Translations under genes and position numbers: made by a program
The notes under the pieces: model-generated
Told to the model about the DNA's origin: nothing
What the model saw: only the letters and a program-made list of their open reading frames with translations
The model's database searches: none
Source: an uncultured bacterium
Lineage (GTDB): Bacteria > Lernaellota > Lernaellaia > Lernaellales > Lernaellaceae
Length of the DNA: 33,136 nt
Assembly (NCBI GenBank): GCA_964534375.1
Contig: CAZHPN010000053.1
Coordinates: 1-33,136, forward strand
Reading direction: 5' to 3'
Shown here: positions 22,267-33,136 of the stretch, piece by piece
Numbering within the stretch: the first letter of the stretch is position 1
How the letters are laid out: every line of letters begins with the position of its first letter

Positions 22267-23589
22267 TCACTTCCCCGCGACGACGACGCCGTCGAAAACC
22301 AGGCTCGGCAAGCGCATCGCGCTGTAGGGCCACGGGTCGTTGGCGGCCTCGGCCAGTTTTTGCCAGAAGCGCAGGTGATTGTCGGCGATGTTCATTTCGG
22401 CGACCGACTGCACGGGTTCGCCGTTCTCGAAGAGCTTGCCCATGATGCCGACGGAAAAATCGCCGGTCGTCGAGTTCGAGTTGCCGCCGAGAAAATCGGT
22501 GATGAGGATGCCGCGGCCCAGCGCCTTCATGAGCTCCGCGACCGAGCGTGGGCCCGGCGGCAGGATGAGGTTGCCGGTCGAGCCGGTGGTCGGCTCGCAG
22601 CCCAGTTTCCGGCTGTAATACCAGTCGACGAGAAAGTCTTTGACCACGCCGCCTTCGACGATCGTGCGTTTTTTCGCCGCCATGCCGTCGCCGTCGAACA
22701 GCCGCGAGCCGAGGCCGCCGACCACGAGCGGATCGGCGATCAGCGTCAAGCGTTCGCTGCCGATTTTTTGACCTTTCTTGTCCGCCAGGCACGAGCGCTT
22801 CTGCTGGATCGCCTGCCCCGACAGCGGCGCCAGCAATTCGCCGACCAGTCGGCCGGCGATGCGGTTTTCCACGACGATCGGCAGCGTCGCGGTCGGAATT
22901 TTCTTCGCGCCCAGCAGCGCCAGCGTCCGCCGCGCGGCCTCGCGGCCGATTTCCGCCGGCGCCGGCAGCCCGTTTTGCCGCCGAGACGAGGCCCAGGAGT
23001 AACCGTTCGGCCGGCGATCGCCTTCGTCTTGGACGGTCGCGTCAGCGCCGCCGTTGAAATTGGTCGTTTCCTGCTCGCCGGTGAAACCGTTGCTGGTCAG
23101 GCGCACGTATTCGGCGCGGCTGTCCTGGCCGGTGGCGGTGACGGAGACGAGTTTGTCGCCGCCCGCCTCCAAACAAGCCGCCTCCATCTCGCGAACCAGC
23201 GCGTGGCGTTTTTCCGTTGTCGCCGCGGCGTAGGCCGGGTCGGCGAGCTGCAAATCGAGCGCGGCCCGTCCTTGGTAATATTTCGGATCGGGCAGGGTGC
23301 GGTACGGATCCTCGGCGAGCAATTTGGTCGCCGCGACCGCTTCGGCGATGAAATCCTGCAGCGCTTGCGGGCGCAGATCGTTGGTGCTCTGGAGGGAAAA
23401 ACGGCCGTTCACGTACAACGACAGCGCCAGCCGGCGTTCGACCGCCTCGCGCACGGTTTCCGGCTTCCGCTGCCGGTATTCGATATTGACGAACCGGCTC
23501 CACCCGACCGTGACGGCGTACTGCTGCGCGCCGGCCTTCGTCGCCGCGTCGCCGGCCCACTGCGCGAGTTCCCGCAATTTCGGGTTCAT
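22267..23589 (-). CDS. pmbA: PmbA/TldE family protein
   Basis: GSRLFDGDG, GGNSNSTTGDFSVG, ENGE..Q.VAEMNIA; no HExxxH; ATG 23589 overlaps the tldD stop (ATGA). Confidence 0.88.
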   Translation of the reverse strand: MNPKLRELAQWAGDAATKAGAQQYAVTVGWSRFVNIEYRQRKPETVREAVERRLALSLYVNGRFSLQSTNDLRPQALQDFIAEAVAATKLLAEDPYRTLPDPKYYQGRAALDLQLADPAYAAATTEKRHALVREMEAACLEAGGDKLVSVTATGQDSRAEYVRLTSNGFTGEQETTNFNGGADATVQDEGDRRPNGYSWASSRRQNGLPAPAEIGREAARRTLALLGAKKIPTATLPIVVENRIAGRLVGELLAPLSGQAIQQKRSCLADKKGQKIGSERLTLIADPLVVGGLGSRLFDGDGMAAKKRTIVEGGVVKDFLVDWYYSRKLGCEPTTGSTGNLILPPGPRSVAELMKALGRGILITDFLGGNSNSTTGDFSVGIMGKLFENGEPVQSVAEMNIADNHLRFWQKLAEAANDPWPYSAMRLPSLVFDGVVVAGK

Positions 23590-25121
23590 GCTTGCGACCC
23601 CGCTTTCACGCCGCCGACCGTCACCGATTTGACGAGCACGGTCGGCAGGCCGAACGACACCGGCACTTTCTGCCCGTTCTTGCCGCAATAGCCGGCCCCG
23701 CCCTGGTGCATCTTCAAGTCGCCGGCGACGGCGATGATGTTGCGCAGCAGCTTCGGCCCGTTGCCGATGATGTTGATGTCTTTGATCGGCGCGGTGAGCT
23801 TGCCGTTTTCGATGCGCTGGCCGCGCGACACGTAGAACGCGAAATCGCCCTCGCCGATCTTGACCTGCCCGTTGGTGACGTCCGCGACGTAGATGCCGTT
23901 CTTCGCCGCGCGGATAAGGCTTTCCGGCGCTTCCGGCCCCGGCAGCATGAACGTGTTGCGCATGCGCGGCATCGGCTGGAAGCTGTAATCCTCGCGGCGG
24001 CCATTGCCCGTCGGCGCCACGCCGTAGTGTTTGGCGGAAATGCGATCGTGCAGGTAGCTGGTCAGCACGCCGTTTTCGACCAGCACGGTCCGCTGCGACG
24101 CTTCGCCCTCGTCGTCGAAATTGAGCGAACCCACCTGGTTGGCGATCGTGCCGTCATCGAGAATCGTGACGAACGGCTCGGCGACTTGCTTGCCGATCAT
24201 CGTGCAAAATGTGGAAACCTTCTTGCGGTTGAAATCCGCCTCCATGCCGTGCCCGATCGACTCGTGCAACAGGATGCCGGTGACCCCCGGCCCGAGCACG
24301 ACGGGCGTTTCCCCGGCCGGCGGCTGCGTCGCGTCGAAGAGGAACCCGGCGCGCATCACCGCTTCGCTCGCCACTTCGTCCACGATCGCCGGCGTGTAAT
24401 ATTCGAAGCCGCGCCGGCCGCCCAGGTTCCACCGCGCCTGTTCGCGCCGGCCGTTCTTTTCCGCGACGACCGCGACGCTGAGGTAGCTCTTCGGCCGCAG
24501 ATCTTCGACCCGGCGCCCGTCGCTGCCGACCAGCAGCAGGCGCGACTGGCTCGTGTGCAGTTCGACGTTCGCCTTGACGATCAGCGGCGAGAGCGCAAAG
24601 CAGCGGTCGTTGACCGCTTGCACCACGGGCAGGCGTTCCGAAATGGGAATCGCCGTGAACAGCCGCGGCAGCGGATAGTAGTCGCCGGTCCGCGCCGGGG
24701 TGAAGACGCGCGCCGGCGCGCCGGCGGGGCCGTCGGCGATCGTCGCGGCCGTCGCCGCCGCGGCCAGCATCGCCTCTTCGGTCAACTCCTGGGTATAGCC
24801 GTAGCCGACCTGGTCGCCGCGCACCGTACGGATGCCGACGCCGAGCACGACACTGGCGTAGGCGCGATCGACCTTGCCGTCTTCGAGCGCGAGCCAGTTT
24901 AGCAGCGAATGCTCGAAATATAGGTCGGCGAAATCGCCGCCGCGCGAGAGGGCCTTGGCGAGCGCCCGGCCGCAGATCGCGTCGGTGATGCCGAACTGCG
25001 ATTCGAAATAACCCGTCTGGTTCGCGAAGGCGAAGTCGAGCCAGCCGCCCGACAGCAGTCCGGCCGCCGCCGCGCCGGCCGTGGTCTGAATAAACGAACG
25101 CCGCGTCATTCGGAGCATCAT
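23586..25121 (-). CDS. tldD: TldD metalloprotease with twin-arginine signal peptide
   Basis: GGDFADLYFE, GVGIR, LLHESIGHGMEADFNRK (HExxxH), GNGRRE..PMPRMRNT, CGKNGQ.VPV; N-terminus MMLRMTRRSFIQ...AFA; GAGGAGG RBS. Confidence 0.92.
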   Translation of the reverse strand: MMLRMTRRSFIQTTAGAAAAGLLSGGWLDFAFANQTGYFESQFGITDAICGRALAKALSRGGDFADLYFEHSLLNWLALEDGKVDRAYASVVLGVGIRTVRGDQVGYGYTQELTEEAMLAAAATAATIADGPAGAPARVFTPARTGDYYPLPRLFTAIPISERLPVVQAVNDRCFALSPLIVKANVELHTSQSRLLLVGSDGRRVEDLRPKSYLSVAVVAEKNGRREQARWNLGGRRGFEYYTPAIVDEVASEAVMRAGFLFDATQPPAGETPVVLGPGVTGILLHESIGHGMEADFNRKKVSTFCTMIGKQVAEPFVTILDDGTIANQVGSLNFDDEGEASQRTVLVENGVLTSYLHDRISAKHYGVAPTGNGRREDYSFQPMPRMRNTFMLPGPEAPESLIRAAKNGIYVADVTNGQVKIGEGDFAFYVSRGQRIENGKLTAPIKDINIIGNGPKLLRNIIAVAGDLKMHQGGAGYCGKNGQKVPVSFGLPTVLVKSVTVGGVKAGSQA

Positions 25122-25337
25122 CCCTCCTCGCCGTTGCCGGCCGCCGAGCCGGGCCCGGTGATTTTGCCGCTGCCGCGCCAGGAAAAATTTACGTCGACGC
25201 AATCTGCCTGTGGCGAGCGTCCCAAACATGCGTTACTTTGTCAACATGAGCGGACGTGGAGTCTGTGTCCCGTCGGCCTTGACGAGGCCGGGGCGAAAAG
25301 CGTGTAATAATCTCAGGCGACGCAAGGGAGTTGAAAA

Positions 25338-25652
25338 ATGAAACGATTTCTAAGTTTTGCGTTTCTTGCAATTTTGACTGTGGCGGTCGTTATTTTTGTG
25401 GTCACGTGCGGCCAGGCCGGGCAACGCGCTGTTAACGACTCCAATCTGGCCGGTGGAACCGCCGGCGGCGGCGGCACGACCGATGACGACAATGACGACA
25501 ACGACGACAACGACACCACGCCGGACGACGACGACGATACGACACCATTTACGGCGGCAGGTTTGACAGCGAACGAGGGCGGGCGCTTGATGGCGCCGGC
25601 GGCGATCGTCGCGCTGGCCGACGCGGCGCCCGCGCTCGACGAGTTGGCGTAA
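25338..25652 (+). CDS. Small putative lipoprotein with Gly/poly-Asp linker and no globular domain
   Basis: AAGGGAG RBS; MKRFLSFAFLAILTVAVVIFVVTC; DDDNDDNDDNDTTPDDDDD; TTGACG...TGTAATAAT upstream (25279-25311). Confidence 0.7.
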   Translation: MKRFLSFAFLAILTVAVVIFVVTCGQAGQRAVNDSNLAGGTAGGGGTTDDDNDDNDDNDTTPDDDDDTTPFTAAGLTANEGGRLMAPAAIVALADAAPALDELA

Positions 25653-25924: not shown

Positions 25925-26995
25925 CTAGCCGCCGTAGTTGAGGATCGTGCCGTTGGCGCCGACGGCAAACACATCGGTCGGCGCGGCGGCCCACACTCCG
26001 CCCAAGCCCTGCGGCGTGCCGCTGTCCATCTGCGACCATGACGCGCCGTTGTACTGGGCGATGTAGCCGCTGTTGCCCGTAATGTACACTTCGCTGGCGG
26101 AAACTCCCCACACGCCGCCCAGCGTATTGCTGGGCGTGGTGTCCACCGTGCTCCAGGTTGTGCCATTGTAATATGCGACCTGCGCACTGCCCACGCCGTT
26201 GGCCACCGCGTACACTTCCGAGGGCGAGGCGCACCAGACGCCGGCAAACAGCACCTGCGAGAGCCCGCTGTTGACGGTGGACCAACTCGTGCCGTCGTAG
26301 TGCAGAATCGTGCTGGAGCCGCCCACCGCATACACGTCGGACGCCGAGGTCCCGTAGACGGCGGCCAGTTCCGCCGGGGCGCCGGCTTCGATGCTCATCG
26401 CCGACCACGATGTTCCTTCAAAGTGCAGGATGCCGCCCTGCTTGGGGTTGTTGGCTTCTTCGCCCACGGCAAACACGTCGGTTGCTGAACTGCCCCAAAT
26501 GCCGAACGTCAGCAACGCCGCCGTGCCCGTCATTTGCGACCAGCTTGCGCCGTTGTAATTCAAGATTATGCCCGCCTGCGTGGTCGCGTCGCCGCCGCCC
26601 GCGAAGACATCCAGCGAGTCGTCCTCCCACACCGCACGCAACGGCAGCGTCGTGGTGCTGGGCTCCGTTGTCCACTTCGTGTTGGCGCCTTGATAATGCA
26701 GGATTGTGCCGCTGTCGCCGACGGCGTACACGTCCGTCGTCGAATTTCCCGCGACGCCGTACATATTGACGGTCACGCCGCTGTTCTCCGACGTCCACGC
26801 GTCGTCGTTGTCGTCGTTGTCGTCGTTGTCGTCGTCGTCGACCGAGCTGTCGTCGTCGTCATCCGGCGCGGCGCTGTCGTCGTCCCCCTGGCGCGACGGC
26901 GTGACGCTGGCGGTACTGCCGCCGCAGGCGATCGCCCAAGCGGCCAAGACCATCGTCACGAGAACCAACAAAAGACCCCAACTGCGGCGTGTCAT
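25925..26995 (-). CDS. Lipoprotein with poly-Asp linker and 7-repeat WGSS beta-propeller domain
   Basis: ATG 26995 with GGAGG RBS (MTRRSWGLLL...AWAIAC-GG); 7 repeats. Confidence 0.86.
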   Translation of the reverse strand: MTRRSWGLLLVLVTMVLAAWAIACGGSTASVTPSRQGDDDSAAPDDDDDSSVDDDDNDDNDDNDDAWTSENSGVTVNMYGVAGNSTTDVYAVGDSGTILHYQGANTKWTTEPSTTTLPLRAVWEDDSLDVFAGGGDATTQAGIILNYNGASWSQMTGTAALLTFGIWGSSATDVFAVGEEANNPKQGGILHFEGTSWSAMSIEAGAPAELAAVYGTSASDVYAVGGSSTILHYDGTSWSTVNSGLSQVLFAGVWCASPSEVYAVANGVGSAQVAYYNGTTWSTVDTTPSNTLGGVWGVSASEVYITGNSGYIAQYNGASWSQMDSGTPQGLGGVWAAAPTDVFAVGANGTILNYGG

Positions 26996-27092
26996 TGCGA
27001 TCCCTCCGTTGCCCGTCCCCGCCCGAATTTCACGCGAATATTCCGGAAGGGCGGATGTTGCGCGAAACACAAAAATCCAGTCTTGAGTCAGC

Positions 27093-27120
27093 AATATACG
27101 GATTTTCCGGGAAAAGACAA
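27093..27120 (-). promoter_or_regulatory. Putative sigma70 promoter (TTGTCT-N16-TATATT)
   Basis: AT-rich patch about 100 nt upstream of 26995. Confidence 0.4.
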
Positions 27121-27141: not shown

Positions 27142-27262
27142 CCGAATGCGGAATGCCGAATGCGGAATGCGGAATTTCGGACCCGGCCAATGCGGAATGC
27201 GGAATGCGGAATGCAGACCGGCCGGAAATTCCGCATTCGCCACTCGCCATTCGCCATTTGGC
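27142..27262. repeat. Heptamer array in two opposed orientations (GCGGAAT x about 8, then ATTCCGC/ATTCGCC x about 5)
   Basis: Directly visible; the opposed arms can base-pair. Confidence 0.85.
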
Positions 27263-27280: not shown

Positions 27281-28096
27281 CTACGCGCCCTTGCGGACTC
27301 GCCCGACGACGGCGCAGACGAAGAAGCCGACGATCGCCGTGAGCACGATCGCCGCCCCGGCGGCGATCTCGAATTGGAACGACACGTACAGGCCGATCAC
27401 GCTCGACGCCAGGCCCAGGCCGACCGCCAGCCAGAACGCGCCGCGCATGCTCACCGCGGACATGCGGGCCGCGGCGGCCGGGGCAAGCACGAGCGCCGTC
27501 GCCAGCAGCGCGCCCACGAACCGCACCGAGGCCGCGACGAGCACCGCCAACAGCAGCGCGAAAACCAGTTCCAGCCGCCGCACCGGAATCCGTTCGGCGC
27601 GCGCCAGCGTCTCGGAAAGGCCGGCCAGCGCCAGGCGATTGCCGAACAAGCCGAGAAACAGGAACGCCCCGGCACACAGCGCGGCCGCGACGCCGGCCTC
27701 CTGCCGCGTCACGGCCAGCACGTCGCCGAACAAATATTGGGTGAAGTTCGCCGTCTGCCGCGTGATGCTCACCAGCGCCAGGCCGAGCGCGACTGACGCC
27801 GAGAGGAACACGCCGACCACCGCGTCCGGCGGCATCTTGCCCTTCGCCTTGAACCAGACGATCGCCGCCGCGACGGCCAGCGCGAAGCCGATCAGCGTGG
27901 CCATCGGCGAAATGCCCAGCGCCAGGCCGAGTGCGACCCCGGTGAAGGCGCTGTGCGCGATCGCGTCGGAAAAATACGACAGCCGCGCCTGCACGACGTG
28001 CGCGCCCATCGCCGCGCAGGCCGGCGCGAGCGCGACCAGCGCGACCAAGGCGCGGCGCATGAAGGCCGGTTCGAGCCACGCGGTCAGCGCGTCCAT
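27281..28096 (-). CDS. znuB: Metal (Zn/Mn-type) ABC transporter permease
   Basis: FMRRAL, SYFSDAIAHSAFTGVALG, YLFGDVLAV, VGALL..AL..APAAAAR. Confidence 0.88.
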   Translation of the reverse strand: MDALTAWLEPAFMRRALVALVALAPACAAMGAHVVQARLSYFSDAIAHSAFTGVALGLALGISPMATLIGFALAVAAAIVWFKAKGKMPPDAVVGVFLSASVALGLALVSITRQTANFTQYLFGDVLAVTRQEAGVAAALCAGAFLFLGLFGNRLALAGLSETLARAERIPVRRLELVFALLLAVLVAASVRFVGALLATALVLAPAAAARMSAVSMRGAFWLAVGLGLASSVIGLYVSFQFEIAAGAAIVLTAIVGFFVCAVVGRVRKGA

Positions 28097-28098
28097 GT

Positions 28099-28899
28099 TC
28101 AATCCTGGTGCAGGTGCAGGTGCGGTTTCTCTTCGTCGCAATCGTCGCAATGCGCCGGCTCCTGGCCGATCGCCATCAACCCGTAGAGCGCCGTCACCGT
28201 CTCGGCCGTCAGCACCGCCGCCGGCGGGCCTTCGAGCAGCACGCGCCGGCGCAGCGCAATGACGTAATCGGCGTGCCGCGCGACCGCCGACAGGTCGTGC
28301 GACACCCACAGCACTGTGACCGAGCGCTCGGCCGACAAGCGGTCGAGCAGGTCGCAGAAGACTTCCTCGCCCTGCGCGTCCATGCCCGCCGCGGGCTCGT
28401 CGAGCAGCAGGATGTCGGGGTCGTTGCGCAGCGCGGCGGCGAGCAGCACGCGTTTGAGTTCGCCGCCGGAGAGCACGCCGATCGGCCGGCGCGCCAGGCG
28501 GCCGGCGTTGGTCATTTCCAGCGCGCGCATCGCCCGCACGACGTTGTCCTTGCGGCGGCCGAGCCACAACGGCCGGCGCTGATCGGCGAGGCAAAGAAAA
28601 TCCAGCACCGTCACCGGCGCGTCGGCGTCGAACGACAGCTTCTGCGGCGCCAGGCCGAACAGCGGCTCGTGCCGGCCGTTCTTGTAATGATCGTGGTAGA
28701 CGATCTCGCCGGTGTACGGCACGAGTTGGAGCAGCGCCAAAAGCAGGGTCGATTTCCCGGCGCCGTTCGGGCCGACCAGCGCCGTCACGCCCTGGCACGG
28801 AATCTTCAGATTCACCTTGTCCAGCACCGTCTGCGCGCCGAATCGAACCGTCACGTCGCGCAGTTCCACCGCGGGCGAATGATCGTGAACGACGGTCAT
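28099..28899 (-). CDS. znuC: Metal ABC transporter ATP-binding protein with His/Cys-rich tail
   Basis: GPNGAGKST, LSGGELKRVLLA, LLLDEP, VSHDL; C-terminus HCDDCDEEKPHLHLHQD. Confidence 0.9.
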   Translation of the reverse strand: MTVVHDHSPAVELRDVTVRFGAQTVLDKVNLKIPCQGVTALVGPNGAGKSTLLLALLQLVPYTGEIVYHDHYKNGRHEPLFGLAPQKLSFDADAPVTVLDFLCLADQRRPLWLGRRKDNVVRAMRALEMTNAGRLARRPIGVLSGGELKRVLLAAALRNDPDILLLDEPAAGMDAQGEEVFCDLLDRLSAERSVTVLWVSHDLSAVARHADYVIALRRRVLLEGPPAAVLTAETVTALYGLMAIGQEPAHCDDCDEEKPHLHLHQD

Positions 28900-29837
28900 G
28901 GCGCGTTTCCTTTCGCGAGGGCGTTCGCCACCGTCCGCGTCATCAGCGTCAGGTCGTCGACGAACGCCTGCGGGCCCGTCGGCCCGGACATGCCGACCTC
29001 GACCGTGGCGACGGGCACGCCGATTTCCTCGGCGAACATGCGCGGCGTGCGCGGATCCACCTGCAGATCGGCGAGAATCGCCGCCGGCTTCTGCGCCTTG
29101 AGCCGCGCCATGATCGCCGCGACCTCGCCGGCGCTCAGGCCGTGGTGCTCGTCGTTGGTCAGCGCCGGCCCCGTTTCCAGGCCGGCGTCGCGCACGAGAT
29201 AGGCGAAGGTCGTCGTCGCCATCGCCACGCGCTTGTTCGGCAGCGCCTGCACCGCCTTCGCGAATTCGTCCTGGATGGCTTGCAGCTTCGTCGCCGCCGC
29301 GATGCCGTTTTCGAGGTAGCGCGCGGCGTGCGGCGGATCGAGCTGCGCCAGCGCCTCGGCCAGCGTCAGGGCCATCGCCGCGGCCTGCTTCGGGCTGACG
29401 AACGGATGCGGCTCCCGGTCGCCGGCAATGCGTTCGACGTTCTTATCGAGGCGCACGATCGTCAGCCGGCCGCGATAGTTGTCGGCGAGCTTGTCGAGGA
29501 ACGGCTCGTAGCCGGCGCCGACGGCGATCAACGCCTTGGCGTTTTCGAGCGCTTTCAAATCGCCCGGCTCCAATTGGTAGTCGTGCGGGCAGCCGGCGGC
29601 GATCGGCACGAGTTGGCGCACATGCACGCCGGGCACGCCGGCGGCGATCGCCAGCGTCAGGTTCTGCATCGGCAGGATCGTCGCCATCAGGTTCAGCGCG
29701 CCGGGGTCGGCCGGCGGCGCGGCGGGGCGTTTGTCGCAGGCCGGCGCGGCGAGCATCGCGCAGGCCAGCAAAACGGCCGTCAACAGCATCCGCGGCATCA
29801 CGAGACGAGTCCCCCTCCGGCCGCGAAATGTAATCAT
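28896..29837 (-). CDS. Metal ABC transporter substrate-binding lipoprotein (ZnuA/TroA-like)
   Basis: CPHDYQL.PGD, G.GYEPFL, EPHPFVSP, FAYL; lipobox-like APAC. Start uncertain (ATG 29837 or the downstream MPRM). Confidence 0.85.
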   Translation of the reverse strand: MITFRGRRGTRLVMPRMLLTAVLLACAMLAAPACDKRPAAPPADPGALNLMATILPMQNLTLAIAAGVPGVHVRQLVPIAAGCPHDYQLEPGDLKALENAKALIAVGAGYEPFLDKLADNYRGRLTIVRLDKNVERIAGDREPHPFVSPKQAAAMALTLAEALAQLDPPHAARYLENGIAAATKLQAIQDEFAKAVQALPNKRVAMATTTFAYLVRDAGLETGPALTNDEHHGLSAGEVAAIMARLKAQKPAAILADLQVDPRTPRMFAEEIGVPVATVEVGMSGPTGPQAFVDDLTLMTRTVANALAKGNAP

Positions 29838-30803
29838 CTACTTTTCTTCCGTTTTCTTCTCGATCAAATTGACATCGACGCGCGGCTTCTGGCCAGGCGC
29901 CAGCAGAACCAGCTTCGCGCGCGCCAGCACCTTGGCGATCGTATCCATGTAAAGGGCCGTGACGGTGAGCTTCGGCGTGATCTTTTTCTCCGCCAGTACG
30001 GACTCGAAGCGTTCCGCCGCGCCCTCGGCTTGCTGCGTGCGGGCGGAGGCCGTCGCGCTCGCCTCCTGCAACCGCTTGCCCGCCTCGCCGCGCGCGAGGT
30101 TGATCGACTTTTCCCGATTGCTCTGCGCCGTGTTGATCGCCCGCGCCGCCTCGGCCTTGGCGTCGCTCACTTTCAGAAACGCCTCGGCGGCGCCTTTGGG
30201 CGGGGTCACGGATTGCAGGTTCACCGCCATCAGCGTGACGCCGGCGCGGTAGCCGTTCAGCATTTCCTGCGCCGCCTTGCGGACGTCGTTCTGGATCTGC
30301 GCCTTGCCGGTCGTCAGCACGTCGTCGACGTGCATCCGCGCAACGGAATCGACCATCGCGGCGCGCACGCTCAATTTGAGGAGATCCTCCGGCTTCTCGG
30401 CGCCGTACAGATAATCGGCCAGGCGCGTGATCTTGTACTGCACGACGGCGACGGCGTCGATCAGGTTTTCGTCGCCGGTCATCAGGGCGATTTCCTTGTT
30501 CACGTCGCCGGCGATTTCGATCCGGCGCACCTCGCCCGTGCGCACCTTCGTCACGGCGTCGACGCCGCTGGGCAGCCGCAGGTGCAGCCCCGACACGATA
30601 TTGTCGTCGACGAGGCGCCCGAAGCGCAGCAGCACCGCCGACTCTTGCACGCCCACCGCGTAGACGCCGCCGGCCAACCACAGCGCCGCCGCCGCGACGC
30701 CGGCGGCCAGCGCGCAGGCCGCCGTGTGGCTGCGCACGTACGCCGCCGCGGCGCGGATGATGCGCACGCTCGGCGGATCGAGGCGGGGCGCGTTACTCGC
30801 CAT
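29838..30803 (-). CDS. hflK: HflK-like SPFH domain protein
   Basis: N-terminal TM, RFGR, GLHLRLP, LMTGDENLI, VDDVLT.GK, PP..A..AF..V, A.GAAERF. Confidence 0.8.
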   Translation of the reverse strand: MASNAPRLDPPSVRIIRAAAAYVRSHTAACALAAGVAAAALWLAGGVYAVGVQESAVLLRFGRLVDDNIVSGLHLRLPSGVDAVTKVRTGEVRRIEIAGDVNKEIALMTGDENLIDAVAVVQYKITRLADYLYGAEKPEDLLKLSVRAAMVDSVARMHVDDVLTTGKAQIQNDVRKAAQEMLNGYRAGVTLMAVNLQSVTPPKGAAEAFLKVSDAKAEAARAINTAQSNREKSINLARGEAGKRLQEASATASARTQQAEGAAERFESVLAEKKITPKLTVTALYMDTIAKVLARAKLVLLAPGQKPRVDVNLIEKKTEEK

Positions 30804-31671
30804 TGAGCGCCTTCAGCAGCTTCGAATTGCCGTCGATGAAAATAGTCGTCTTCTGGTCGATGATCGTCTCGTAGCTCTGCAACGTGCGCAGAAACTTGTA
30901 AAACTCCGGGTCTTTGCCGTACGCCGCGGCGAAGGTCTCGATCGCCTGCGCTTCGCCCGCGCCGCGGATCGATTCGGCCTTCGAAGCGGCCTCGGACAAA
31001 ATCTTGCTCTTCTCGGCCTCCGCCTGGGCCTCGATCTTGAGCGCCTCTTCCTCGCCCTCGCTGCGGTACTTGGTGGCGATGCGGTTGCGCTCGGCCCGCA
31101 TGCGCGCGATGACGCTCGACCGGTTCTGCGGCGGCAGATTCAGGCCGCTGATCTGCAAGTCGACGACCTCGATGCCGAACGAGCGGCCGACGATTTCATT
31201 GACCGCGGCGGCGACGCGTTTGGCGATTTCCCGCACTTTGATCTGGCCCTCGGTCGTGCTGATGAAACTTTCCATCGGCTCGTTGCCGACCGCGGCGCCC
31301 AGTTCCGACGAGGAAACATCGAGCAGCCGCGCCTCGGCCTCGTTGCGCGTCTTCACCGTTTGCGCGAACCGCAGCGGGTCGGCGATTTTCCAGCACAGGA
31401 AGCTCTCGACGAGCACGTTCTTTTTGTCCTGCGTCAGCATTTCCGTCGGCACGTTGTCGAAAACGAGCAGCCGCGAATCCATCGCCACCACCGAGTCGAT
31501 CGGCCAGAACAGCTTGAGGTGCAGGCCCGCCGTCGCGACGCCCGGCAGCGGCCGGCCGAAGCGCGTCACGATCGCGCGCTGCGTCTCGTCGATCGTGAAG
31601 AAGGCGGTCGAGAGCCAGAGCAAACCGACGAGGCCGGCGAGCAGCCAGAGCAGTTTTTTGGTCAGCGTCAT
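30793..31671 (-). CDS. hflC: HflC-like SPFH domain protein
   Basis: TRFGRP, LTQDKKNVLV, WKIADPLRF, RMRAER...A..YRSEGEEEA, AYGKDPEFYKFLRTLQSY; ATG 31671 overlaps the upstream stop. Confidence 0.88.
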   Translation of the reverse strand: MTLTKKLLWLLAGLVGLLWLSTAFFTIDETQRAIVTRFGRPLPGVATAGLHLKLFWPIDSVVAMDSRLLVFDNVPTEMLTQDKKNVLVESFLCWKIADPLRFAQTVKTRNEAEARLLDVSSSELGAAVGNEPMESFISTTEGQIKVREIAKRVAAAVNEIVGRSFGIEVVDLQISGLNLPPQNRSSVIARMRAERNRIATKYRSEGEEEALKIEAQAEAEKSKILSEAASKAESIRGAGEAQAIETFAAAYGKDPEFYKFLRTLQSYETIIDQKTTIFIDGNSKLLKALNGE

Positions 31672-33136
31672 TTTTTCGGCGCTCCCGTGGGAAGGGTTTG
31701 TGACTGCGACGAGCCGATGGCCGACGTCGGCGCCGCCGCGGTCGGCGGCGGCGGCGCGGCGGCGGAGAAGAGCGACGGCGCGTCGCGCCAGAAGATGACG
31801 TCGCGCCCCGCGGTTCCGCCGGGGACGATGAATTTTTCGCGGCCGGGCAGCACGCGCTCGGCCATTTCGAGCCATAGCAAATAACCCAGCAGGTTGGCGT
31901 GGCCGGCGAACGCCTGCGCCTGCGCGAGAAACGCCTCCGATTTGCCGGCGGCGATGGTCGCCGCCGTGTCCGCCGCGGCTTGCGCCCGCGCGACGTCGAG
32001 CGTCGCCTGGCCGCGCGCCTTCGGCGTCTCGCGCGCCAGCGTTTCGTACGCCTGATGGATGCGCGTCTCGCGGTCCTCGCGCGCGCTGGAGGCGTCGCGG
32101 AAGGCGAACACCGCGTCCTGCGGCGGGTGAATGTCGACCAGGTGGACCGTGCCGATGCGCACGCCCGCGCCGATTTCGTCGAGATGTTGCTGCAAATCGC
32201 GGGCGATGAACTGCTCCAGCTTGCTGCGGTCGTGCGTCAGCAGGTCGTCGAGCGTGCTCTTGGCGATGAATTCGCGCGCCGCGGCCTGGGCGTAGCGCGA
32301 CACGACGTTCGCGTCCTTGCCGACGCGATAAAAGAACGCATACGGATCGGACAGGCCGTAATGCACCGTAAAGCTGGCGTTGACGAGGTTCTCGTCGCCG
32401 GTGAGATATGACGTTTCGGTTTTTTGCGCGCTCATCGCCGCCACCGGGCTATGCCATTGCTCCGGGTTGACGTTCTTCATGATCTCGCGGCGCTGCGCGA
32501 GCTGCGTCAGGTCCGTGTTGAAGCCGATGTCGTTCTTGCGCGGATACAGGGTCCGCCAGACGTCGCGCCGGCCGAGCGGCCGCGGAATCCAGTAGTGCAA
32601 GCCCGGCGGCAGCGCGGCCCCGAGGCGTCGGCCGCAGAAGAATTCGTAACCCGCCGAGTCGGGCGGCACGATGAAGAATCCGGAGCCCAGGTACAGCGCC
32701 GCGGCCACGGCGAACGACGCCCAGACTCGGCGCGTGCGCCGGACGCGTGCGACCGCCGGTTCGACGGCGCGGCGCCCGAGCAACTCGCGATAGTTCGCGA
32801 GCAGATCGCGCACGCCTTCCCGCGCCGCGCCTTTGAAAAGCCGCCAGACGAGCAGCACGGAGAGGATGCCCATCGAGACCCATTGCAGCGCGCCGACCAA
32901 CCCGTAGGTCTTGGCCGACAGCGAGGCGGCGACGCGCAGGCCCGTCGCACCGAGGAAATAGTCGAGCAGCAAGCCCGAGAGCAGCGAGCCGATCGCTACG
33001 CTGAACAGGTAGATGCGCACGAAGCCGCGCCCGAAATTGCGCGTCAAAAGCAGCATCGTCGCCGGGTTCGTCGCCGGGCCGGAGAGCAGAAAGACCATCG
33101 CCGCGCCCGGGCTGACGCCCTTGAGCACCAGCGCCG
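31668..33136 (-). CDS. Fusion protein, 5'-partial: COG0701/SO_0444-type permease C-terminal part + TM + HflK-like SPFH domain + Pro-rich tail
   Basis: LKGVSPGAAMVFLLSGPATN is the signature of the SO_0444/DUF318 permeases; in the same frame follow PGLHYWIP, YLTGDENLV, DIHPP..AV.AFRDA.SAREDR (HflK-like). The frame runs off the window end. Confidence 0.82.
   Translation of the reverse strand, partial: ALVLKGVSPGAAMVFLLSGPATNPATMLLLTRNFGRGFVRIYLFSVAIGSLLSGLLLDYFLGATGLRVAASLSAKTYGLVGALQWVSMGILSVLLVWRLFKGAAREGVRDLLANYRELLGRRAVEPAVARVRRTRRVWASFAVAAALYLGSGFFIVPPDSAGYEFFCGRRLGAALPPGLHYWIPRPLGRRDVWRTLYPRKNDIGFNTDLTQLAQRREIMKNVNPEQWHSPVAAMSAQKTETSYLTGDENLVNASFTVHYGLSDPYAFFYRVGKDANVVSRYAQAAAREFIAKSTLDDLLTHDRSKLEQFIARDLQQHLDEIGAGVRIGTVHLVDIHPPQDAVFAFRDASSAREDRETRIHQAYETLARETPKARGQATLDVARAQAAADTAATIAAGKSEAFLAQAQAFAGHANLLGYLLWLEMAERVLPGREKFIVPGGTAGRDVIFWRDAPSLFSAAAPPPPTAAAPTSAIGSSQSQTLPTGAPKK

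Follow-up and report, generated by a model that had tools for sequence, protein, structure and literature searches.

A putative zinc-type exporter fused to an HflK-like subunit in a six-gene operon with three SPFH genes of an uncultured Lernaellaceae bacterium

What is an HflK/HflC-type membrane scaffold doing in one operon with metal transporters, and would it still serve the protease FtsH there? The question is raised by a locus on a 33,136-nucleotide contig of an uncultured bacterium of the Lernaellaceae (GenBank assembly GCA_964534375.1, contig CAZHPN010000053.1). The contig (G000:C53) was analysed whole and is referred to here as the window. On its minus strand, at positions 27281–33136, lie six co-directional and coupled genes whose ends overlap or abut, as seen from the list of open reading frames (ORFs) and the letters at each junction. 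In order they encode a fusion of an SO_0444/ArsP_1-type permease with an SPFH protein (K1), an HflC, an HflK (K2), a ZnuA-type binding protein, an ATPase and an ABC-3 permease. A first-pass annotation, made from the letters alone, had proposed a dedicated cage of three SPFH subunits that encloses or organises metal transporters instead of FtsH. The analysis described here favours an HflK/C-type ring that carries a zinc-type exporter, probably still works with FtsH in this genome and takes part in zinc homeostasis, a reading to which we assign a probability of roughly 50%.

The six genes and their five junctions are as the first-pass annotation described them. The K1 frame at 31668–33136 comprises the 3′ 1469 nt (488 codons) of a fusion of 788 amino acids (aa), and its stop shares an ATGA (31668–31671) with the start of the gene for a 292-aa HflC-type SPFH protein (30793–31671). 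The HflC stop and the start of K2, an HflK-type SPFH protein of 321 aa (29838–30803), overlap by 11 nt (30793–30803), and the TAG stop of K2 directly abuts the ATG of the binding-protein gene (29838/29837). The latter gene (28896–29837) encodes an atypical ZnuA-family (cluster A-I) substrate-binding lipoprotein of 313 aa and is joined through a second ATGA (28896–28899) to the gene for a 266-aa ATPase of the Znu/Mnt type (28099–28899). A gap of 2 nt (28097–28098) precedes the ATG, at 28096, of the last gene (27281–28096), which encodes a 271-aa membrane permease of the ABC-3 family (ZnuB/MntB type). The permease scores 184.4 bits against PF00950, for which the Pfam gathering score is 20.1, and the ATPase has MntA (155.6 bits) and ZnuC (141.2 bits) as its best models, each under its equivalog cut-off.

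The K1 gene is cut at 33136 because the window is a whole contig that ends there. Its 5′ part was located on contig C320, the first 55 nt of which are exactly the last 55 nt of the window. An ArsP_1 match is truncated at the start of C320, and the reading frames of the two contigs share 17 residues, giving a complete protein of 317 + 488 − 17 = 788 aa. A database protein of 788 aa (P0004) is 100% identical across the window part of K1. It contains ArsP_1 at residues 13–358 (147.5 bits) and Band_7 at residues 474–663 (63.3 bits), and scores 331.5 bits against the SO_0444 family model NF033936 over model positions 2–348, above the equivalog cut-off of 300; with only the window fragment the score is 73.3 bits. 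The PLPICSCG and C..STP motifs are kept in the N-terminal part of K1, where there is also a His/Cys-rich loop. Within the window part, the last ArsP_1 permease helices (aa 1 to ~100) are followed by a basic linker, predicted to be cytoplasmic, and then by an HflK-like part predicted to be periplasmic.

Among solved structures, E. coli HflK comes closest to the SPFH part of K1, whether sequences or folds (9cz2_XA, E 1.3e-10) are compared. An AlphaFold2 model of K1, with a mean predicted local distance difference test score (pLDDT) of 69.4, places an anchor helix at aa 129–149, an SPFH core after it and a helix of ~70 residues at aa 339–409. Fold comparison aligns the model with HflK in 9cz2 and 7vhq, and the predicted layout is that of the E. 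coli protein, with a single anchor helix, then an SPFH domain and then a long helix. The anchor helix coincides with a hydrophobic stretch (32688–32750) lying after the permease and before the SPFH domain. The SPFH (Band_7) domain itself (32046–32621) holds a K1-specific insert of ~40 aa, modelled at low confidence, with a conserved W..H motif. Here it reads WHS (aa 227–229), and W227, H228 and S229 are invariant across 36 ArsP-type K1 proteins. The insert is common to K1 proteins fused to ArsP-type, CDF and ATPase transporters and is absent from K2 and from one of three canonical HflK proteins compared, the other two having a shorter insert that lacks the W..H motif. The fuller (Y/F)(E/Q)W..H pattern occurs in the majority of K1 proteins across the three fusion types and is missing in an ArsP subclade (L058, L115).

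The two remaining SPFH proteins score above their family cut-offs. HflC (30793–31671) gives 208.1 bits against TIGR01932 (cut-off 134.4) and has E. coli HflC as its best solved match (7vhp_G, E 2.2e-38); K2 gives 184.9 bits against TIGR01933 (cut-off 159.4), with HflK 7vhp_E as its best solved match (E 5.3e-33). All three SPFH proteins thus match chains of the E. coli HflK/HflC–FtsH ring best (PDB 7vhp, 7wi3, 9cz2, 9paw). The comparison also brings out differences: there are three subunit genes here as against two in E. coli, K1 bears a whole N-terminal metal exporter in addition to the ~40-aa insert, and the locus lacks the hfq–hflX context of E. coli hflKC. The hflX and hfq families gave no match among the window ORFs scanned, in general scans that included no search aimed at those two genes.

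Quick maximum-likelihood trees were built under LG+G4, with support from the Shimodaira–Hasegawa-like approximate likelihood-ratio test (SH-aLRT) only and one approximately unbiased (AU) test. HflC-type and HflK-type proteins separate in them (SH-aLRT 99 and 99), and K2 groups with canonical HflK (SH-aLRT 95 and 98) with the fused K1 proteins outside that group, which suggests that K2 is the paralog closest to canonical HflK. Not all K1 came out as one clade in free searches; a tree constrained to one clade of 22 fused K1 was 25.4 log-likelihood units better than the free search (p-AU 0.80). The same subclades recur whether K1, HflC or K2 is followed through the tree, and the pairwise distances of the three proteins co-vary (r 0.82–0.84 over 17 loci, uncorrected for shared descent). 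We conclude from the repeated subclades and the co-varying distances that the cassette is passed on as a unit and has probably been transferred as one; the window, for example, groups with the Thermoanaerobaculia locus L056.

How widely the fusion is conserved was seen at three scales. A search with K1 of 40 relatives and the genome itself gave strong matches in 11 other genomes, and no match in G003 (98% complete), G007 (84%) and several other relatives. Ten of the 11 matching relatives were fetched, the eleventh match (G002) lying on a 2.2-kb contig, and the order K1–HflC–K2 is kept in all ten. Their first gene is ArsP_1+Band_7 by Pfam in four (L032, L033, L035, L036), was so assigned on tblastn alone in L034, which was outside the Pfam scan, and is Cation_efflux (CDF)+Band_7 in the other five (L037–L041). 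A survey of species-representative genomes with a K1 alignment returned 80 loci, 25 of them with permease and SPFH domain together. HflC and K2 follow in 22 of these whole fusions; the other three (L060, L085, L091) reach the contig end first. Record titles in this survey name Deltaproteobacteria/Myxococcota, Planctomycetota, Acidobacteriota, Rokubacteria, Spirochaetales, Binatia and Gammaproteobacteria. When the SPFH part of K1 was searched by itself (E <= 1e-10), 81 proteins were found, comprising 73 ArsP_1+Band_7, four CDF+Band_7, three P-type ATPase+Band_7 and one partial protein (P0003) with Band_7 only.

The third survey, of 80 loci from an HflC alignment, was chosen independently of any transporter. 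A transporter and K1 share one open frame in 69 of the 80: a P1B ATPase in 40, CDF in 15 and ArsP_1 in 14. The other 11 comprise one locus with a stop between ATPase and K1, seven cut by a contig end, two without a visible K1, and L180, in which an unfused K–C–K trio is followed by a P-type ATPase. The best family for the fused ATPases is Zn/Cd (TIGR01512, 452.5–474.7 bits). It can be seen that K1–HflC–K2 is the conserved core and that one paralog lineage carries three alternative modules, each classed by its family as an exporter, the common theme being a predicted zinc-type exporter that ends in the cytoplasm, one helix and a periplasmic HflK-like domain. The tie between the three SPFH genes and metal transporters, as first proposed, is therefore borne out by the fusion of K1 to three exporter classes and the co-inheritance of K1, HflC and K2, and a link between scaffold and transporter is strongly supported.

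Several variations on these trios were seen in passing. A Phycisphaerae genome (G044) that holds both an ArsP-type trio and canonical hflKC, its hflK there being fragmented (L125), has a second SPFH trio (L122, G044:C29, 3986–9801), the first protein of which is 711 aa long and has no Pfam family in its N-terminal 300 aa; an ABC ATPase follows this trio. Rokubacteria loci L068 (6841–7680) and L096 (551–1360) have an extra HflC-type gene ~2–3 kb upstream of the K1 fusion. In five CDF-type trios (L151, L159, L162, L176, L199), one of them in a complete 0.88-Mb WWE3 genome and another in a record titled Blautia sp., a separate P-type ATPase lies 3–6 kb upstream.

Known systems resemble parts of this arrangement. 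SO_0444 is reported to be required under ZnSO4 or CuCl2 stress in Shewanella oneidensis, where it is a free-standing protein that has a ZntR-like regulator as its partner (PMC3219624). K1 resembles it by the NF033936 score and the two kept motifs, and adds to it ~400 residues of HflK-like scaffold and the His/Cys-rich loop. In stomatin with aquaporin 1 (PDB 9zd2, by its entry title), a eukaryotic SPFH ring is likewise associated with a protein of membrane transport, through non-covalent contacts, whereas here client and subunit form one chain. Pseudomonas aeruginosa PA2439–PA2434 (PaFlo5/6/7, PA2436 and the P1B ATPase HmtA) has three SPFH genes in the order HflK-type, HflC, third, together with a heavy-metal transporter. 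The window has the same combination of three SPFH genes and a transporter in one unit, in coupled genes; the transporter is a separate gene in P. aeruginosa, whereas that of the window is fused and from a different family, with an ABC importer further along the operon. The P. aeruginosa locus was matched by gene order in papers and not by sequence. Locus L211, from a genome of the same order as the Pseudomonadales metagenome-assembled genome G041, has an unfused K–C–K trio and then a P-type ATPase, as in L180; it came from a follow-up of five large genomes after an HflC profile search of 201 genomes of that order, which gave mostly canonical HflC.

The P. aeruginosa genes respond to zinc. PA2439–PA2434 are given as 5.6- to 14.4-fold up in a znuA mutant (PMC4542158, Table 2), Zur is reported to bind the PA2439 promoter (PMC8531726), and PA2438, PA2439 and HmtA are listed as increased in zinc-depleted proteomes (PMC11761036). 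Deletion of PaFlo5-7 is described as giving ~20% less biofilm and attenuated Galleria virulence; that report links neither hmtA nor zinc homeostasis to the trio, never mentions hmtA, has the word zinc once, in a sentence on FtsH, and leaves a role of the P. aeruginosa SPFH proteins in metal transport unexplored (PMC13086221). A literature search, with subscription journals outside its coverage, found no paper on exporter–HflK fusions. The first-pass statement that no characterised example is known therefore holds for the fusion, as far as that search reaches, and has to be qualified for the unfused P. aeruginosa locus with its known zinc and Zur response.

We pooled 38 distinct ArsP-type loci in a census of importers. 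A ZnuA/B/C-type transporter directly follows K2, on its strand, in nine of them (the window, L044, L050, L058, L066, L075, L087, L133, L156) and upstream of the cassette in one more (L057), making ten ZnuABC-type loci, and a ZIP transporter follows K2 in four (L115, L170, L178, L187). The cassettes adjoined by importers are spread over several phyla, with the same offset after K2 in 13 of 38. Neighbours of the kind associated with zinc limitation occur as well, namely a CobW_C (COG0523-type) protein at L058 and, at L066, a short S14 gene. Since an importer is present in 14 of the 38 ArsP-type loci and the ABC importer in none of the ten nearest relatives, the linkage to an importer is recurrent but accessory, so that the connection first drawn to the ABC importer stands in part. 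Mrp/NUBPL-type P-loop NTPase genes, one of which has a GBBH-like_N domain, were noted just upstream of the ArsP-type cassettes L044 (5266–7459) and L062 (8769–9974).

The binding protein of the window departs from the canonical pattern. In an alignment with Synechocystis ZnuA (2ov1/1pq4), two canonical His ligands out of three are conserved, Thr replaces the third, and a Cys stands two residues ahead of the first His (GCPH). Its scores against the ZnuA, MntC and AztC equivalogs (53.6–64.3 bits), for which the metal site has three His or else His/His/Glu/Asp, lie far under the cut-offs of 268–400, and it is a member at the family level only (PF01297, 143.3 bits). Its subtype is lineage-specific, and the same genome encodes a close paralog on contig C20 (L216, G000:C20:14000-26000). 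There the paralog gene is directly downstream of an RND (AcrB/CzcA-type) pump and is followed by two unidentified ORFs and then by a second ZnuA–ZnuC–ZnuB set.

Whether the ring would still contain FtsH depends on what else the genome holds. A single FtsH gene was found, outside the window on contig C129, and in this 94% complete genome the trio supplies the only hflC and hflK above the family cut-offs; the search for a separate canonical hflKC found none above cut-off. The proposal that the cage acts instead of FtsH is thus unsupported, since the window genes are the only hflC/hflK of a genome in which one FtsH is present. The first-pass annotation had itself named, as grounds for giving up its proposal, that these be the only hflKC genes and that they bind FtsH; the first half of this was found. 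Among 16 carrier genomes, eight have the HflC of the trio only: the Lernaellaceae genome itself, G001, G005, G011, G015, G246, which is a complete 0.88-Mb genome, G248 and G249. One more (G016) has a second, fragmented copy.

On the preferred reading, the operon would encode a three-subunit HflK/HflC-type scaffold, one subunit of which is a single chain with a metal exporter. This chain would run from an SO_0444-type Zn/Cu export permease through a cytoplasmic linker and a membrane helix to a periplasmic SPFH domain and coiled coil. We infer that K1 most likely takes HflK-type positions beside HflC, along with K2, which would build the exporter domains into the wall of an HflK/C-like inner-membrane ring. 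The ring would then control the activity or turnover of the exporter. FtsH is the probable protease partner because the genome has no other hflKC, and the unit would belong to zinc homeostasis because of the probably co-transcribed ZnuA-type importer and the zinc-starvation genes beside sister cassettes. In yeast, a zinc exporter induced in zinc-limited cells protects against zinc shock. In the form we prefer, cells short of zinc would produce the exporter beforehand, along with uptake systems, and the scaffold would restrain it as a safety valve for a sudden zinc load.

A number of observations weigh against this reading. An exporter within a zinc-starvation unit is counter-intuitive. K1 of the window scores below the HflK cut-off of 159.4 bits (TIGR01933; 123.4 bits for the window part and 122 for P0004), while CDF- and ATPase-fused K1 pass it (202.8–220.6 bits), and by these scores it is HflK-like and outside the HflK family as filed. 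Canonical hflKC is present besides the trio in seven of the 16 carriers (G041–G045, G247, G250). The importer linkage is patchy: no ZnuA/B/C-type gene was found near the trio in any of the ten nearest relatives (E <= 1e-5), neither a ZnuABC-type nor a ZIP gene in 24 of the 38 ArsP-type loci, three of which are too short to judge, and neither beside any of 41 P1B-ATPase-type loci; across 15 CDF-type loci the sole importer match is a ZIP ~3 kb past K2 in L149. The binding protein of the window is not an ortholog of those in other cassettes, and since it also lacks one zinc ligand, the importer adjacency here may be an independent event; the metal of the window importer is uncertain on this evidence. 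No recognisable Zur box was found in the upstream DNA on C320 or by k-mer counts over 26 upstream regions. The PaFlo5-7 triple deletion is described as mild in rich conditions (PMC13086221), and HmtA is listed as an importer for the zinc-depletion-induced locus (PMC4542158, PMC8531726).

The most probable alternative, to which we still give a low probability, is the one first proposed, in which K1, HflC and K2 form a dedicated FtsH-free cage that encloses or organises metal transporters, the ABC importer included, as a metal-handling microdomain. A separate canonical hflKC in seven of 16 carriers, in G041 within a miaA–hflX–hflK–hflC–purA context, is what would be expected if the trio had its own job apart from FtsH. 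Across the 170 loci examined, ftsH was found in none, and solved SPFH rings with non-protease clients exist, as with stomatin and aquaporin 1. Set against this are the eight carriers in which the HflC of the trio is the only one above cut-off, the complete 0.88-Mb genome among them, and the position of K2 as sister to canonical HflK. The missing ftsH near the trio says little, because canonical hflKC of E. coli is not known to adjoin ftsH either.

Somewhat less probable, and in our view unlikely, is a unit for zinc acquisition, in which the K1 transporter would import zinc or aid its uptake as HmtA reportedly does, giving scaffolded high-affinity import in starvation. The ZnuABC-type and ZIP importers, the CobW_C protein and the short S14 gene beside ArsP-type cassettes would fit such a role, as would the induction of the P. 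aeruginosa locus by zinc depletion and the listing of its HmtA as an importer (PMC4542158, PMC8531726). However, export is the known activity of each of the three fused classes, from mutant fitness in the case of SO_0444 (PMC3219624), the other two being CDF and Zn/Cd P1B (TIGR01512) transporters, and the ATPase-type loci have no importer beside them in any of 41 cases. Transport direction is unreadable from sequence, and export by K1 is a prediction from family.

A plain housekeeping hflKC, with HflC and K2 as FtsH modulators, K1 fused by happenstance and the importer a chance neighbour, is improbable: it would fit the only hflKC of the genome, the importer-free nearest relatives (ten of ten) and a binding protein of lineage-specific subtype with a close paralog, but it runs against the fusion of K1 to metal transporters of three unrelated classes in 69 of 80 HflC-survey loci, the translational coupling and co-inheritance of the three genes, and the ZnuABC-type or ZIP gene at the same offset after K2 in 13 of the 38 cassettes, across several phyla. 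Improbable to a slightly greater degree is the idea that the K1/HflC/K2 ring seals off a patch of membrane and periplasm into which wall-tethered exporters pump zinc, forming a private periplasmic zinc pool. If true, this would be the bacterial equivalent of a compartment for zinc storage or metallation, feeding exported zinc enzymes or the co-encoded importer during starvation, and would make SPFH cages makers of compartments, beyond the regulation of proteases.

In the DNA flanking the operon, C320 (L215, 1–953, with upstream sequence to ~1100) holds, besides the beginning of the K1 gene, a promoter-like TTGACT-17-TAGCAAT and the word AAAACCGATT, which is common to the upstream regions of L035 and L036 from same-family genomes. 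The k-mer counts over the 26 upstream regions gave one AT-rich word only, AAAACCGA, in four of 26; a related ACCGATT motif lies near the promoter-like site and also upstream in two same-family genomes. A motif shared upstream in three genomes of one family is too weak for the call of an operator. On the 3′ side of the last gene are two heptad repeat arrays (27144–27258; GAATGCG x9.9 and CATTCGC x3.6), parts of which, on the gene strand, look by eye as though they could pair into a hairpin. The gene beyond these arrays has a promoter-like site of its own at 27120–27093, and a terminator scan gave seven sites against 6.1 expected, an excess too small to be of use. One wetland RNA run gave two small contigs of low depth on 32378–32705 only, which is no evidence for an operon transcript.

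Beyond the six genes, the scan of the window covered 18 ORFs, ten of which have no family. Two predicted secreted proteins or lipoproteins at 25338–25652 (plus strand) and 25925–27005 (minus strand) contain Asp/Asn-rich triplet repeats, which are GACGACAAC-type arrays at 25476–25537 and 26800–26884; the larger has a weak match to a beta-propeller (Rax2) below cut-off. At 22267–25229 on the minus strand lies a TldD/PmbA metallopeptidase pair, the second member of which has an N-terminus resembling a twin-arginine translocation signal, below the Pfam cut-off.

SPFH rings, whether of HflK/C, stomatin, prohibitin or flotillin, have debated effects on the proteins they enclose, and their clients are usually unidentified or in dispute. 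The fusion described here would give such a ring a built-in client, in a design that joins one HflK paralog lineage to three unrelated zinc-type exporters across many phyla and that is widespread yet unstudied. Because the client is encoded within the subunit, exporter and ring can be studied as a defined pair. The finding also offers a testable role for the zinc-starvation-induced SPFH trio of P. aeruginosa, and it suggests that scaffolding may be a general and overlooked layer of bacterial zinc homeostasis.

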